Source: a virus (Duplodnaviria > Heunggongvirae > Uroviricota > Caudoviricetes). Taken from it: 6,671 bases of DNA. Shown here piece by piece: positions 1 through 6,671 of this stretch; within the stretch, counting starts at the first letter, position 1, and every line of letters starts with the position of its first letter. The stretch lies in IMG/VR virus record IMGVR_UViG_2737471821_000005; one strand, written 5' to 3'. The position numbers and the translations under genes were made by a program. Under the pieces are notes generated by a model. That model was not told where the DNA came from. It did no database searches and was given only the letters and a program-made list of their open reading frames with translations.

Positions 1-1053
1 TTACGGGGTAATGCCAACCGCTGCCGCCACTTTGTCGCCACTTGGCAGCGTTGCCAGAGGATTGAAACGGAGCGCCGTTTCCAGATGATCCGGTGCCAGA
101 TGAGCGTAACGCATAGTCATTTTTATATCGTGATGTCCGAGGATTTTTTGCAAAGCAAGGATATTTCCACCCGACATCATGAAATGCGCCGCAAACGTAT
201 GGCGCAGAACGTGTGTCAGTTGACCGCGAGGGAGCACGATTGACGTTTTTTCCATCACGGATAAAAATTGAAAATAGCAGTCTGTGAAGAAATTGAACCC
301 ATCAAGCGCCATGATCTCTTCATAAAGCTCTTTACTGATAGGGATGCTTCTGTTTTTCTTCCCCTTCGTTCTTACAAAGGTAATTCGGTATTTAGTCACC
401 TGTGATCGGGTAAGGTTTATTGCTTCTCGCCAGCGTGCGCCTGTGCTTAAGCATATCTTGACTACCAGTGCCAGAATTGGGTCCTGACGTTTGCAATCAG
501 CCAGCAGTTCAACAATCTGCTCATGGGTAAGCCATGCCATCTCTTTTTCTGCGATGGTGAATTTTCGCATGTTCTCCAGTGGGTTTGGATACGACCATTC
601 GCCCAGGCGGGATAGTTCGCTAAAAACACTACTTAGATAGCTTTGCTCCAGGTTAATGGTGACCGGGCTTGCTCCTTTCTTCCATTTCTCGCTGAAGTAG
701 ATCTCACCTGTCAGGCGTTTATCTCGATAGTGGGCAAACATTTTAGAGGTGAGATCGGTTGCAAGGGGATTGCCCAGAGCGTCAACCATCAACAGCAATT
801 TATCATAGACATGCTGCCCAGCGGTTAGAGATTTACCATGTAGTTTGAACCATAGCTCAACCACGTCTTTCAGTGTTCGACGATCCACTGATTCTCCCAG
901 CCAGGGCTTTGCTTCGGTTTCTTCCATCGTATGGCGCTCAAAAGCCAGAGCTTCGCCTTTGGTGGCGAATTGTTTACGCACACGACGCCCACTACGTCCG
1001 GCGGGGTAACATTCGCAAAGCCATTTTCCTGTGGTGAGTTTTCGTACTGCCAT
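1..1053 (-). CDS. int: Tyrosine-type site-specific integrase, P2/186 family
   Basis: 350-aa ORF from ATG at 1053-1051 to TAA at 3-1. A GGAGGG ribosome-binding site lies about 9 nt upstream on the minus strand. The translation has the C-terminal catalytic region typical of tyrosine recombinases (LSTGARWREA, HVLRHTFAAHFMMSGG, MRYAHLAPDHL with the terminal Tyr) and an N-terminus recalled as similar to P2/186 integrases. The track ORF begins 26 codons further upstream, but that extension has no ribosome-binding site. Confidence 0.9.
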   Translation of the reverse strand: MAVRKLTTGKWLCECYPAGRSGRRVRKQFATKGEALAFERHTMEETEAKPWLGESVDRRTLKDVVELWFKLHGKSLTAGQHVYDKLLLMVDALGNPLATDLTSKMFAHYRDKRLTGEIYFSEKWKKGASPVTINLEQSYLSSVFSELSRLGEWSYPNPLENMRKFTIAEKEMAWLTHEQIVELLADCKRQDPILALVVKICLSTGARWREAINLTRSQVTKYRITFVRTKGKKNRSIPISKELYEEIMALDGFNFFTDCYFQFLSVMEKTSIVLPRGQLTHVLRHTFAAHFMMSGGNILALQKILGHHDIKMTMRYAHLAPDHLETALRFNPLATLPSGDKVAAAVGITP

Positions 1054-1239
1054 AAAAAATGCCCTCCAATAGAGAGCATTTTTACTGTATATATAACCAG
1101 TGTCAATGTATGAAATCCTGCGACCATACATCTCACTGAAGCCATAATGAAGTTGGCTATTTTTTGCTATGTGAGTATGTGACTTTTGCGGTTAGCCTGC
1201 GGCTCATTGTTATATTAGGCGCAGATATAAAAGCAAAAT

Positions 1240-1431
1240 TTATCGCGAGTTTTTAGTACAGATTTTTTTTGATTTACTAATAGTTCCATCATTGCAAACG
1301 AACTTTCCATCGGAGGTACAGTGAGAGACACCTCCCTTTTTCCCAGAACAAGGATAATTTTTAGCATAGGTAGTTAGTGGGTTTAATAACAAAGAGCATG
1401 ATAAAACCACAAAAAATACCTTACCAAGCAT
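1240..1431 (-). CDS. Small secreted cysteine-rich cationic protein (hypothetical; 63-aa precursor)
   Basis: ATG at 1431-1429 preceded by GGAGG about 5 nt upstream; it starts 15 bp after the cI stop codon on the same strand. The N-terminus looks like a Sec signal peptide (MLGK + [12 protein letters not shown] + NPLTTYA) with a likely cleavage after TYA. The predicted mature ~40-aa peptide has 4 Cys and a net charge of about +7. No family recognised. Confidence 0.5.
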
Positions 1432-1446
1432 AGTTTCCTCCCGGTA

Positions 1447-2016
1447 TTACCTAACGTACTTAATTGTTAAACTTATAATTTTCCCAATTATTTCAACATC
1501 TTCTATCTTGCACTCGAAGGCTCTGCTTCCACCTTCAACGAAGATTCTTCCACCGGGTAAACGAGTAATATCGCGGATTGTTATTTCGCCATCAATACTT
1601 ATTACCCATTTACCGTCACGTATATCATCAAATTCTTTATCACAAATAAATTCAGAATTGTTATCTGTGATGACAAAAGGTTTTTTAAACGTAGAGGGTA
1701 GAAATCCCTTATCAAAAATATAAAAACCGTCTTCACGCAAGGCACCATCAGATAATACATATTTAGCAACTTCCATAGTATTTGTATTACCTGAAGTTTG
1801 CTTTGAACCATGTCCGGTTGTGAGCCAATTAAGCGAGGTGCCCGTTTCAAGGGCGCACTGGATTACCCATTCTGCTGGGAATGAGTCACGCATGTAGCGT
1901 GTGGCGAGTGTACTTTTAGAGATTCCTAAATGATCGCACAACGCCTGTCGAGTTTTGAATCCATAAGCTTCTACCATGCGCTCTATAGCGCCTCGTCCGC
2001 CTTTCTCCAAATTCAT
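1447..2016 (-). CDS. cI: 186-type CI immunity repressor
   Basis: The N-terminal segment AIERMVEAYGFKTRQALCDHLGISKSTLATRYMRDSFPAEWVIQCALETGTSLNWLTTG matches the phage-186 CI helix-turn-helix domain as recalled (EAYGF...CALETG...WLLTG). Length (~190 aa) and position between int and a divergent apl/cII operon fit. Start chosen at ATG 2016-2014 because GGAG sits 5 nt upstream; the track's GTG at 2022 lies too close to that GGAG. Confidence 0.85.
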   Translation of the reverse strand: MNLEKGGRGAIERMVEAYGFKTRQALCDHLGISKSTLATRYMRDSFPAEWVIQCALETGTSLNWLTTGHGSKQTSGNTNTMEVAKYVLSDGALREDGFYIFDKGFLPSTFKKPFVITDNNSEFICDKEFDDIRDGKWVISIDGEITIRDITRLPGGRIFVEGGSRAFECKIEDVEIIGKIISLTIKYVR

Positions 2017-2040
2017 GGTCACTCCAAGTGAACTTTTATC

Positions 2041-2069
2041 TTGACGATTTCACTGTGCGATCGTATGTT
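2041..2069 (+). promoter_or_regulatory. Candidate rightward sigma70 promoter (pR-like lytic promoter): -35 TTGACG, 17-bp spacer, -10 TATGTT
   Basis: TTGACG at 2041-2046 and TATGTT at 2064-2069 with exactly 17 bp between them, in the cI-apl intergenic region and oriented toward apl/cII. Predicted transcription start near 2076, about 66 nt before the apl ATG. Confidence 0.45.
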
Positions 2070-2096
2070 TATGGTGTTCACAAAATACAAACGATC
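2059..2096. promoter_or_regulatory. Imperfect inverted repeat GATCGTATGT / ACAAACGATC (9 of 10 complementary) bracketing the pR-like -10 and start site; candidate repressor operator
   Basis: Left arm 2059-2068 and right arm 2087-2096, separated by 18 bp. The left arm overlaps the -10 hexamer. Each arm contains a GATC site. Confidence 0.3.
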
Positions 2097-2141
2097 CGTA
2101 TTCGTCCTGATTAATCATCATTAAACGAGGAATGTTGCATC

Positions 2142-2363
2142 ATGAGACCTAACATTTCAATCACTCTTACCACGCCTCATGTGACTATTGAACGCTATAG
2201 CGAGCTGACAGGGCTGTCCATCGATACCATCAATGACATGTTGGCTGACGGACGCCTTATCCGTCACCGTCTGCGCAAAGATAAAAAACGTGAAAAAGTG
2301 ATGATCAACATAGCAGCCATGACCGTTGATGCGCTTTCAGAATGCAATCTAAACCTTAATTAG
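2142..2363 (+). CDS. Apl/Cox-like small DNA-binding regulator and excisionase (hypothetical by position and HTH-like segment)
   Basis: 73-aa ORF, first gene rightward of the switch and divergent from cI. Contains a helix-turn-helix-like segment ([23 protein letters not shown]) and a basic C-terminal stretch. A GAGGA motif lies about 11 nt upstream of the ATG. Confidence 0.6.
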
Positions 2364-2395
2364 TTCGATTCTGAAATACATCAGAGGCATTGACC

Positions 2396-2905
2396 ATGTT
2401 TGATTACCAAGTTTCCAAACATCCACATTTTGATGAAGCCTGTCGTGCATTCGCATTGCGCCACAACCTAGTGCAACTGGCAGAACGTGCAGGCATGAAT
2501 GTGCAGATTCTGCGGAACAAGCTGAACCCAGCTCAACCTCATTTATTAACCGCACCAGAAATCTGGTTGCTTACCGATCTGACTGAAGATTCAACGCTGG
2601 TAGATGGCTTTCTGGCACAGATTCACTGCCTGCCATGTGTACCGATTAATGAGGTGGCAAAAGAGAAACTGCCGCATTACGTCATGAGTGCAACTGCAGA
2701 GATAGGGCGTGTCGCGGCAGGTGCGGTTTCTGGCGATGTAAAAACCAGTGCAGGCCGTCGTGATGCGATCAGCAGCATTAACTCTGTTACACGACTGATG
2801 GCGCTGGCTGCTGTTTCATTGCAGGCCCGTTTACAGGCTAATCCTGCGATGGCGAGTGCAGTTGATACCGTGACTGGCCTCGGTGCTTCATTCGGTTTGC
2901 TGTGA
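2396..2905 (+). CDS. cII: CII-like lysogeny-establishment regulator (phage 186 CII family)
   Basis: The translation from ATG 2396 ([24 protein letters not shown]...[26 protein letters not shown]...GASFGLL) closely matches my recollection of 186 CII along its whole length. AGAGG lies 8 nt upstream. The track's TTG start at 2390 adds two codons and is less likely. Confidence 0.8.
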
Positions 2906-2912
2906 GGTGCTT

Positions 2913-3113
2913 ATGCTGACGAAAGAACCATCATTTGCATCGCTGCTGGTAAAACAAAGTCCGGCAATGCACTACGGTCACGGCTGGATCATGGGTGAGG
3001 ATGGTAAACGCTGGCATCCGTGCCGTTCACAAGATGAATTGCTGGCAGAACTATCTACGAAAAAACGGGGGAACAAATGGCTATTGAAGGCGCTGCGGCG
3101 ACTGTTCCATTAA
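2913..3113 (+). CDS. Hypothetical small basic early protein (66 aa)
   Basis: ATG at 2913 with GAGGTG just upstream, starting 8 nt after the cII stop. The track ORF begins at a GTG inside cII, which I regard as a spurious extension. No family recognised; occupies the slot that fil holds in 186. Confidence 0.45.
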   Translation: MLTKEPSFASLLVKQSPAMHYGHGWIMGEDGKRWHPCRSQDELLAELSTKKRGNKWLLKALRRLFH

Positions 3114-3418
3114 GACCCGGTGAACGCCTGAATGGACTTAATCATATTGCGGAGTTAAGGGCGAAAGTTTTTGGTTTGAATATTGAGTCAGAGCTTGAGC
3201 GGTTTATTAAAGATATGCGTGATCCTCGGGATATCAATAATGAACAAAATAAACGGGCACTGGCTGCCATATTCTTTATGGCAAAAATTCCAGCTGAACG
3301 TCATAGCATCAGCATTAATGAGCTGACCACTGACGAAAAGCGGGAGTTGATTAAAGCAATGAATCATTTTCGTGCAGTGGTGAGCTTATTTCCCAGACGG
3401 CTAACCATGCCGAATTAA
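3077..3418 (+). CDS. Hypothetical early protein (113 aa)
   Basis: ATG at 3077 preceded by CGGGGGA about 4 nt upstream. It overlaps the 3' end of the previous gene by 37 nt in another frame. No family recognised. Confidence 0.5.
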   Translation: MAIEGAAATVPLRPGERLNGLNHIAELRAKVFGLNIESELERFIKDMRDPRDINNEQNKRALAAIFFMAKIPAERHSISINELTTDEKRELIKAMNHFRAVVSLFPRRLTMPN

Positions 3419-3485
3419 CCAACTAATGAAATTAATGGCGTAAACCCGCCGGGCATCCCTTTATCTAAATTCAGGAGAATTGCTT

Positions 3486-3719
3486 ATGCGTAATATTGAA
3501 ACCCTCACGACCAAAACCGGACCGGATGATGCAGGTCTTAATCTTTTACTGACAGAGGCTCGTCTGGAAGAACGCCGGGCAAGGGCTGAAGCAATGGCTG
3601 CTCGCCTCGATAGCCTGGCGTGTCATATCACCTCCCGCCAGCTAAACCACGTCGAAGCGGCAGAACTGCTGCGTGTGACTGCTGAAGCAATCCAGAACGA
3701 AGCGCAGGAGATCCACTGA
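3486..3719 (+). CDS. Hypothetical small acidic, probably helical protein (77 aa)
   Basis: ATG at 3486 with AGGAGA 7 nt upstream. Its stop overlaps the next start (TGATG). No family recognised with confidence. Confidence 0.55.
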   Translation: MRNIETLTTKTGPDDAGLNLLLTEARLEERRARAEAMAARLDSLACHITSRQLNHVEAAELLRVTAEAIQNEAQEIH

Positions 3720-3946
3720 TGGCTGATGCAATGGATCTCGTACAGCAGCGCGTTGAAGAAGAACGCCAACGCCATATCCGTGCTGCCCGTGCCAAAACGC
3801 CGGGCGTGTCCCGCGTGCTTTGCGTTGAGTGTGAAGCGCCAATTCCGCCAGCACGCCGCCGTGCCATTCCGGGTGTGCAGCTTTGCATTACCTGTCAGGA
3901 AATCGCAGAGCTGAAAGGCAAACATTACAACGGAGGTGCTGTATGA
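3719..3946 (+). CDS. TraR/DksA-family C4-type zinc-finger protein
   Basis: 75-aa protein with two Cys pairs spaced as in TraR/DksA zinc fingers (CVECEAPIPPARRRAIPGVQLCITCQ). Start and stop overlap the neighbouring genes. Confidence 0.75.
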   Translation: MADAMDLVQQRVEEERQRHIRAARAKTPGVSRVLCVECEAPIPPARRRAIPGVQLCITCQEIAELKGKHYNGGAV

Positions 3947-4797
3947 GCACCATCCTGAAATGGGCAGGAAATAAAACCGCCATAATGTCCGAACTGAAAA
4001 AGCATCTTCCTGCTGGCCCGCGACTGGTTGAACCTTTCGCGGGTTCCTGTGCAGTGATGATGGAGACGGATTACCCCAGCTATCTTGTTGCGGATATTAA
4101 TCCTGATTTAATCAACCTCTATAAAAAGGTTGCTGCTGATTGTGAGTCGTTTATATCTCGTGCCAGAGCTTTATTTGAGGAAGCAAACAGGGAGGTGGCT
4201 TATTACAACATAAGGCAGGAGTTTAATTACTCCACTGAAATTACTGATTTCATGAAAGCGGTATATTTCCTGTATCTCAATCGTCACGGTTACCGTGGTT
4301 TATGTCGCTATAACAAGAGCGGGCATTTCAACATTCCCTACGGTAATTATAAAAATCCGTATTTCCCTGAAAAAGAAATTCGCGCATTTGCAGAGAAAGC
4401 CCAGCGGGCAACGTTTATCTGCGCCAGCTTTGATGAAACGCTGGCGATGTTGAAGGTGGGGGATGTGGTGTATTGCGATCCGCCTTATGACGGTACGTTT
4501 TCCGGCTATCACACTGATGGTTTCACTGAAGATGATCAGTATCACCTGGCATCTATTCTTGAACATCGGTCATCAGAAGGACATCCGGTCATTGTTTCTA
4601 ACAGTAACACGTCTTTGACCCGGTCCCTTTATCGTAATTTCACTCACCACTACATCAGGGCGAAACGCAGCATCGGCGTTGCAGCGGGGGAGGGAAAATT
4701 TGCAACAGAGATGATTGCCACTAAATCTGCTAATTGGTTTAGTGCCGATTTTAGTAGGGGACGTGACTCTACTGTTATTTTCGGGGTGCAAGTGTGA
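3943..4797 (+). CDS. dam: Dam-family DNA adenine-N6 methyltransferase (GATC-specific family)
   Basis: 284-aa protein from ATG 3943 with GGAGGTG upstream. It has the N-terminal AdoMet-binding motif (ILKWAGNK...[10 protein letters not shown]), the catalytic DPPY motif (VYCDPPYDG), and [16 protein letters not shown], all in the order I recall for E. coli Dam. The track ORF's 20-codon 5' extension lacks a ribosome-binding site. Confidence 0.9.
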
Positions 4798-5624
4798 AAG
4801 AAATGCACCACGGAATTCATCATTTCCATGGGACGCCTGTCTGGGGAAGTGCTGGCGACGTTCATCGTATTGCGGTGAGCGGAGCTGGCGCTTTCGTCTC
4901 CTATGTACGACCAGATCAGATTGCGGCGTCCATTCAGCACGCTCAGGTCGTCGGCATTGATAACGGCGCATTTTCTGCATGGGTGCGTGGGCTAAAAATT
5001 AACTGGAGTGATTTTTATAAATGGCTCCTGAACTATTACCACCATCCTAAGGTCGCTTTTTTTGTCATTCCTGATGTTGTGGACGGAGGTGAACGTGACA
5101 ATGATGCCCTGATAAACGAAGTTCCGAAAATGTTCTACGGGAAGGCAACTCCCGTCTGGCATCTGCACGAGTCAATCGAGCGGCTTATCGAGCTATGTCG
5201 TGAATGGCCTCGTGTCTGCTTTGGATCGTCTGGTGAATATGCGGCTATCAGAACTGCGCACTGGCATCGTCGTATGCAGGACGCTTTTGAAGCAATTTAT
5301 TGCCGACACAATTTCAAAACAGCTGTTCATGGTTTGCGCATGCTTGACGGTCGTGTGTTGGGAAATTACCCACTGGCGACTGCCGACAGTACAAATCTTG
5401 CCTGCAATGTCCCCAAATTTAATAGCAAATATCCTGAGCTGACGCGGGCTATTCAGGAGGCTGAGTATTCGCGCAATCTGACGGAAAAGGAGCTGAAAGC
5501 TGTCATTCTGAAAAACCGTTGCGCAATTTTAAAAGGTGCAATTGAAGCTGTTCGCCCACCTTCAGTTTCTGATTGGCTGTCGAATGGTTTGCAGCCTTCA
5601 CAGCTCGAACTGGAGATTGCGTAA
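4794..5624 (+). CDS. TGT-fold protein lacking the zinc subdomain; candidate DpdA-like DNA 7-deazaguanine transglycosylase
   Basis: 276-aa ORF whose GTG start overlaps the dam stop (GTGA), with GGGGTG 5 nt upstream. Motifs appear in TGT order: FHGTPVWG (cf. FMPVGTYG), [10 protein letters not shown] (cf. DSGGFQ, first catalytic Asp), [10 protein letters not shown] (cf. MIFDEC, substrate Asp), CFGSSGEY (cf. GGLAVGE), HGLRMLDG (cf. LMGVG), ATADSTNLA (cf. FDCV, nucleophile Asp). There is no CxCxxC...H zinc cluster. Being a real gene is high confidence; the function is moderate confidence. Confidence 0.55.
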
Positions 5625-5914
5625 TGAGCTACAGCTATTCCTGGAATGCTGAGAAAAAAGCAATCAATCCTTACGTAGAGACAGAAGAGCAATCTTCAGT
5701 TTCTGCGCTTTCAAACCTGATCGCTCTGTACGCTGCCGATAACGAGCAGGAACAGCTGCGCCGCGAGGCACTGAGTGATCAGGTCTGGGAGCGTTATTTC
5801 TTTAATGAATCCCGTGATCCTGTCCAGCGCGAAATGGAGCAGGATAAGCTCATTAGTCGGGCAAAGCTGGCGCATGAGCAGCAGCGTTTTAATCCAGATA
5901 TGGTCATTCTGGCG
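5624..5914 (+). pseudogene. 5' portion (97 codons) of a phage early gene interrupted by IS26; possibly the replication initiator by position
   Basis: ATG at 5624 overlaps the previous stop (TAATG). The reading frame runs straight into the IS26 terminal repeat at 5915, and the remaining 70 codons of the track ORF 5573..6076 are translated IS26 sequence. In P2/186-like phages the gene after the TraR-like region is the replication gene A. Confidence 0.5.
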
Positions 5915-5928
5915 GGCACTGTTGCAAA
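5915..5928. repeat. IS26 terminal inverted repeat (the end nearest the transposase stop codon)
   Basis: Exact GGCACTGTTGCAAA at the element boundary. Confidence 0.85.
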
Positions 5929-5966
5929 GTTAGCGATGAGGCAGCCTTTTGTCTTATTCAAAGGCC

Positions 5967-6671
5967 TTACATTTCAAAAACTCTGCTTACCAGGCGCATT
6001 TCGCCCAGGGGATCACCATAATAAAATGCTGAGGCCTGGCCTTTGCGTAGTGCACGCATCACCTCAATACCTTTGATGGTGGCGTAAGCCGTCTTCATGG
6101 ATTTAAATCCCAGCGTGGCGCCGATTATCCGTTTCAGTTTGCCATGATCGCATTCAATCACGTTGTTCCGGTACTTAATCTGTCGGTGTTCAACGTCAGA
6201 CGGGCACCGGCCTTCGCGTTTGAGCAGAGCAAGCGCGCGACCATAGGCGGGCGCTTTATCCGTGTTGATGAATCGCGGGATCTGCCACTTCTTCACGTTG
6301 TTGAGGATTTTACCCAGAAACCGGTATGCAGCTTTGCTGTTACGACGGGAGGAGAGATAAAAATCGACAGTGCGGCCCCGGCTGTCGACGGCCCGGTACA
6401 GATACGCCCAGCGGCCATTGACCTTCACGTAGGTTTCATCCATGTGCCACGGGCAAAGATCGGAAGGGTTACGCCAGTACCAGCGCAGCCGTTTTTCCAT
6501 TTCAGGCGCATAACGCTGAACCCAGCGGTAAATCGTGGAGTGATCGACATTCACTCCGCGTTCAGCCAGCATCTCCTGCAGCTCACGGTAACTGATGCCG
6601 TATTTGCAGTACCAGCGTACGGCCCACAGAATGATGTCACGCTGAAAATGCCGGCCTTTGAATGGGTTCAT
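5967..6671 (-). CDS. tnp26: IS26 transposase Tnp26 (DDE transposase, IS6 family)
   Basis: 234-aa translation ([39 protein letters not shown]...LVSRVFEM) matches Tnp26 as I recall it. Its ATG is the last three bases of the window (6671-6669). Confidence 0.95.

Follow-up and report, generated by a model that had tools for sequence, protein, structure and literature searches.

The replication gene A of a phage-186/P2-type prophage was very probably inactivated by IS26, which interrupted the gene between codons 97 and 98 in the window (the whole 6671-nt stretch of DNA that was analysed), so that no functional initiator would be supplied from this locus and replication would be lost. Gene A codes for an HUH-type rolling-circle initiator that nicks the phage origin, and in P2/186-type phages this origin is itself part of the coding sequence of A. 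What is left of A in the window lacks the catalytic domain and is cut off from the origin, and after derepression the element should be unable to replicate. Gene A can be called dead with high confidence. The inability of the element to replicate follows by analogy from the known role of A in P2 and 186, and it is held with somewhat lower confidence. The features on which this reading is based are collected in Table 1, in which the coordinates of the phage genes were the RefSeq gene calls of the E. coli D9 prophage (L001) mapped onto the window and the families were taken from Pfam and PHROG.

Table 1. Features of the window, with positions counted from its first base.
Feature	Position	Strand	Basis or remark
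int	1-1053	-	
63-aa gene	1240-1431	-	
cI	1447-2016	-	Phage_CI_repr + Phage_CI_C
apl/cox-like	2142-2363		divergent from cI
cII	2396-2905		CP76
fil	2913-3113		
DUF5347	3077-3418		
DUF2732	3486-3719		
TraR/DksA-type zinc-finger gene	3719-3946		
dam, D12-class Dam methylase	3943-4797		
273-aa "TGT-like" protein, intact	4803-5624	+	PHROG 887
5' fragment of prophage replication gene A, codons 1-97 of 790	5624-5914	+	identity to residues 1-97 of intact A in L006, L011 and L012
Hybrid read-through ORF, 150 aa (97 aa of A + 53 aa of IS26 antisense)	5624-6076	+	
Candidate target-site duplication TTCTGGCG	5907-5914		single copy at the empty site
IS26, 757 of 820 bp	5915-6671	-	100% identity to IS26
14-bp terminal inverted repeat of IS26 (IRR), on the side downstream of tnp26	5915-5928		GGCACTGTTGCAAA
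tnp26, complete 234-aa transposase	5967-6671	-	NCBIfam NF033587 + Pfam PF13610

A reading frame starting at 5624, intact for 97 codons and running into an IS26 terminal repeat at 5915, had been described from the letters of the window, and this description was correct in every detail. The ATG was followed by 97 sense codons, after which the perfect 14-bp repeat GGCACTGTTGCAAA began, and the eight bases abutting the IS26 end were TTCTGGCG. There was no stop codon at the boundary. The frame continued for 53 codons into IS26 and stopped at 6074-6076, and the resulting hybrid of 150 residues is probably a meaningless by-product. At the two outer ends, the first base of the window was that of the integrase stop codon and the last base that of the tnp26 start codon, both exactly. 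The window was probably cut at gene boundaries out of a longer sequence, and the source DNA therefore very likely goes on past IS26.

The visible part of the element did not differ from IS26 at any position, be it in the 757 bp, the 14-bp inverted repeat or the 234-aa Tnp26. IS26 copies from over 5000 plasmid records agreed with it at every base (757/757), which is no chance resemblance. One end of the element lay inside the window, while the remaining 63 bp and the other inverted repeat lay outside it. The transposase was assigned to the IS6 family by NCBIfam NF033587 (2.3e-82) and to DDE_Tnp_IS240 by Pfam PF13610 (2.4e-48), and its residue 184 was glycine. The complete IS26 has 820 bp, carries 14-bp inverted repeats and produces 8-bp target duplications; it moves by forming cointegrates, in which two direct copies of IS26 surround the incoming DNA, and a lone IS26 with an 8-bp duplication arises only after such a cointegrate has been resolved by homologous recombination (PMC4196232). 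The insertion in gene A would accordingly be expected to have taken place by copy-in cointegrate formation with an 8-bp duplication, followed or not by resolution through homologous recombination.

The nature of the break also bears on whether the junction could be an assembly artefact, that is, a phage contig falsely joined to a collapsed IS26 repeat while A is intact in the organism. IS26 is a multicopy repeat that breaks and confuses assemblies, the junction was present in no other record searched, and the complete record of E. coli ERP001 shows a duplicated, frameshift-ridden copy of this prophage region that resembles an assembly error. However, the break coincided to the base with the start of the IS26 inverted repeat, a signature of transposition that a false join would not be expected to produce, and the 757 bp of IS26 were free of errors. 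Moreover, for even a mis-scaffolded contig to have such an end, the reads must contain a genuine junction of phage and IS26. An artefact is hence considered very unlikely.

The interruption was seen by comparison with intact prophages. Bases 1-5914 of the window were 100.000% identical to the prophages L006 (GCA_005400265.1, BIDU01000013.1) and L011 (GCA_016314925.1, AAYEYU010000006.1), both of which had an uninterrupted 790-aa A directly after the 273-aa gene. The prophage of E. coli D9 (NZ_CP010152.1), with its gene A at 8831-11203, aligned to bases 1-5915 without gaps and with 8 substitutions (99.87%). The match to the intact relatives ended at the IS26 end; the alignment reached 5915 since the empty site also has G at this position. 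In L006 and L011, the empty site read ATGGTCATTCTGGCG up to the break position and GACGTCAATGCC directly after it, with one TTCTGGCG, and the encoded protein continued from ILA into DVNAQPSHISKPL. The break corresponded to nucleotides 291/292 of the 2373-nt gene A, and the 3' part of the gene, absent from the window after codon 97, starts with GACGTCAATGCCCAGCC. Because there were zero substitutions in the 5914 bp relative to the intact prophages, the insertion is recent, and the element is no old, decaying cryptic prophage.

The empty site was also decisive for the possibility that the ORF of 97 codons represents a small phage gene in full, with its natural end at the IS boundary, in which case nothing essential would have been lost. 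The 97 residues alone gave no match against Pfam, PHROGs or NCBIfam, and nothing else spoke in favour of this reading. Against it, the identical prophages had 790 codons without a stop, the ORF of the window ran into IS26 rather than ending at the boundary, and the database proteins that matched the ORF were N-terminal pieces of replication endonucleases. The reading was rejected as almost certainly wrong, since the empty site reads straight on through the break into the 790-aa A. When the exact 273-aa protein was looked up, the gene directly after it encoded a Phage_GPA protein of 780 or 790 aa in 10/10 of the chromosomal contexts recovered, all of them intact prophages; these contexts (at least ten) came from the 24 longest contigs out of the 359 blocks of the collection with this widespread protein, and IS26 contexts are possible in the rest.

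The interrupted gene had been taken for the replication initiator from its position alone, an identification described as weak, and it can now be made directly. In L006, L011 and L012, an intact replication endonuclease of the Phage_GPA family, 790 aa long, opens with exactly the 97 residues of the window, and 96/97 residues were identical to WP_021537010.1, a 790-aa "replication endonuclease" of E. coli D9. The family scans of the 97 residues being empty, the identity of the gene was established through their contiguity with the 790-aa A of the intact relatives. The intact A matched the Pfam family Phage_GPA (PF05840) at residues 174-496 with 1.2e-127 and PHROG 91, "nicking at origin of replication", with 3.5e-287. 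It contained the HUH motif EPHHDGTVHWH, with HWH at 430-432, and the paired active-site tyrosines Y484 and Y488 in YIAKY at 484-488, and both motifs aligned with their counterparts in P2 A and 186 A. The whole-protein identity of P2 A and 186 A to the intact relative was 31-33%, and the likeness extended to a full-length Phage_GPA match, the patterns EPHHDGT.HWH and Y(I/V)AKYISKNIDG and a P2-like nick sequence within the gene. In the window, by contrast, codons 1-97 alone remained. The part derived from A ended at residue 97, without the Phage_GPA domain, the HUH motif and the active-site tyrosines, and the product is a fragment of a Phage_GPA family member rather than a functional member.

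An alignment of the 97 residues with the replication proteins of P2/186-like phages had been suggested as a check. Against P2 A and 186 A the similarity was weak, with 9 identities in 33 aligned columns. This weakness is explained by about 57 extra residues near the N-terminus of A in the lineage of the window compared with P2 A and 186 A, so that SWNA..KAI, close to the start, is the only motif common to them. The IS26 break lay about 20 codons past the end of this extension.

The position of the break relative to the origin was considered as well. According to the P2 reference record, A is essential and makes the site-specific nick at the origin, and the nick lies inside A at nucleotide 1859 of the gene. 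In the 186 reference record, A is the rolling-circle replicase and the origin nick lies inside A at nucleotide 1833. The role of A and the internal origin were taken from these annotated records, as a literature search gave nothing usable. The intact relatives had a P2-like nick sequence, GCGCCCCTTGGACTCGTGGCAATAA, at about nucleotide 1982 of A, which is 1691 nt past the IS26 break and outside the window. The nick motif of this lineage, assigned together with the position of the origin by similarity to P2 alone, was GGACTCGTGGCAATAA. The nick region encoded APWTRGNNC in the intact relatives versus APRSPVNNC in P2.

With the catalytic domain, the motifs and the origin all downstream of the break, it may be asked whether the prophage could still replicate. 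Should the 3' part of A adjoin IS26, a shortened A, for example from Met111, might be expressed from an IS26-borne or hybrid outward promoter; it would retain the complete Phage_GPA domain along with the origin and could act in cis. The segment that would be lost is mostly the lineage-specific extension, which is absent from P2 A and 186 A. However, the conserved N-terminal motif SWNA..KAI, which both proteins do share, would be lost too, and expression would no longer be tied to the early operon or translationally coupled to the gene upstream. The chance of such a rescue is judged to be very slim.

What lies to the right of the window concerns the structure around the insertion. Three arrangements are possible. 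A lone IS26 may be followed by TTCTGGCG and then by the remainder of A; an insert bounded by IS26 may have the duplication at its distal end; or the DNA may have been deleted or inverted, in which case no duplication would be adjacent. It is quite possible that the IS26 end in the window marks the edge of an IS26-mediated rearrangement, either a deletion or inversion to the right or an IS26-bounded segment, such as an integrated plasmid or a resistance region, that splits A. Deletions, inversions and fusions of replicons are documented outcomes of replicative transposition by IS26, with intramolecular events giving deletions or inversions (PMC4471558), and the cointegrates leave two direct copies around the incoming DNA (PMC4196232). 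A search for the observed phage/IS26 junction gave no match in 5426 complete E. coli genomes, PLSDB, INPHARED, the GTDB representative genomes and the JGI metagenomes, and the junction that a simple insertion duplicating TTCTGGCG should produce was not found in the genome and metagenome collections. Neither junction was thus seen in any collection searched, which leaves the simple form without positive support. However, the same absence of matches applies to the rearranged forms, a single IS26 with flanking 8-bp duplications is also common, and the left arm was free of decay. In the case of a deletion, the window would represent a 5.9-kb prophage remnant and not a complete but crippled prophage. 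Interruption of A by IS26 remains the reading under each of these structures, since A is dead whatever the right side looks like, and the rearrangement concerns only what lies beyond IS26. At the protein level, exact look-ups of hybrid ORFs of 150 aa and 167 aa found nothing, and a homology search with the hybrid ORF among 5.8 billion proteins gave no identical or full-length homologue, so the same insertion was not found there.

The DNA to the left of the break has the features of the early region of a phage-186/P2-type (Peduoviridae) prophage, as judged from gene content and order. The order of the early genes agreed with the phage 186 record and with the annotated D9 prophage, and A held the same place as in P2 and 186, closing the early operon behind the DUF2732 and TraR/DksA-type genes. 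The sequence-only reading had held that the immunity region and the modification genes were intact, and this was borne out, as all 11 upstream genes (11/11) were full length, with 0-1 amino acid differences from D9 and none from L006 and L011. The stop codon of the 273-aa gene overlapped the start of A in the sequence TAATG at 5622-5626. According to the phage 186 record, orf84 apparently has to be translated to its end for A to be translated, and this orf84/A arrangement resembles the overlap in the window. The 273-aa protein matched PHROG 887, "queuine tRNA-ribosyltransferase" (2.9e-96), and gave no match against Pfam, NCBIfam or the PDB sequences. It is annotated as hypothetical in RefSeq and, with the Dam methylase, occupies the place of orf84 in phage 186. 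Prophages were not mentioned in the 7-deazaguanine/DpdA papers checked. Between int and cI, the 63-aa ORF had several cysteines, and its N-terminus was hydrophobic and resembled a signal peptide; the ORF matched PHROG 6000 (unknown function), and its relatives had a precomputed match to Pfam PF27300 YdcA. This ORF is possibly a lysogenic-conversion gene.

The sibling prophages, which lie next to rcdA/ybjK in E. coli, had the same gene order from int to A as the window. In the siblings, the uninterrupted A was followed by a DinI-like (Tum-type) gene, then by variable cargo and the genes for portal and terminase, whereas in the window IS26 followed codon 97. Between the A/DinI-like gene and the portal (about 13200-17500 in L004-L013), otherwise near-identical siblings differed in their cargo, which was a reverse transcriptase alone, a reverse transcriptase with an SMC/AAA ATPase, AAA_21 with RloB, or SieB. 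This region looks like a hotspot of variable cargo, and in the prophage of the window its place would be beyond IS26.

Two further copies with a disturbed early region were found. In L014, another E. coli assembly (GCA_049978645.1, JAAPIZ010000036.1, 10321-10397), a different multicopy repeat, of which an E. coli genome can have as many as 26 copies, broke the same A gene at codon 107, and the contig ended inside this repeat. There has thus been at least one further, independent hit of gene A by a mobile element. The second case was E. coli ERP001 (NZ_CP063214.1, 1-10074), where a second copy of the early region stood at the start of the record with most of its genes frameshifted. This frameshift-ridden duplicate was rejected as a parallel case; it is probably an assembly error, arising from an unresolved assembly overlap or uncorrected long-read errors, and not biology.

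The prophage would thus be a defective one that retains CI immunity and the Int/Apl-type excision functions. In this respect it is similar to the cryptic prophages made by IS insertion, in which an essential lytic function is likewise lost while the immunity and integration genes are kept. Old cryptic prophages, by contrast, show wider decay, and no such decay was visible in the 5.9 kb examined here. In P2, the A protein works preferentially in cis, and the late genes require replication for their expression. The cis action of A in P2 genetics is said to go back to the work of Lindahl in 1970. If both properties apply, a co-resident relative would therefore not rescue the prophage. It is exceedingly unlikely that the N-terminal piece of A, together with the 53 residues encoded by IS26, interferes with the initiator of incoming related phages and thereby makes the prophage a locked-in, immune and replication-interfering element.

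Prophage genes knocked out by an IS are a textbook matter, and both components of the junction are known sequences. The specific junction is apparently unrecorded, yet it is no new kind of thing. For annotation, the segment 5624-5914 should be treated as a truncated replication endonuclease pseudogene and not as a small hypothetical protein. The IS26 copy flags a possible IS26-driven rearrangement in the source chromosome; its chromosomal location suggests, without showing, resistance-associated IS26 activity and possibly an IS26-bounded insert adjoining the locus. Beyond the strain itself the finding matters little: a very recent IS26 insertion should have immobilised a P2/186-type prophage in which the repressor, the integrase and the excision-control genes are intact.
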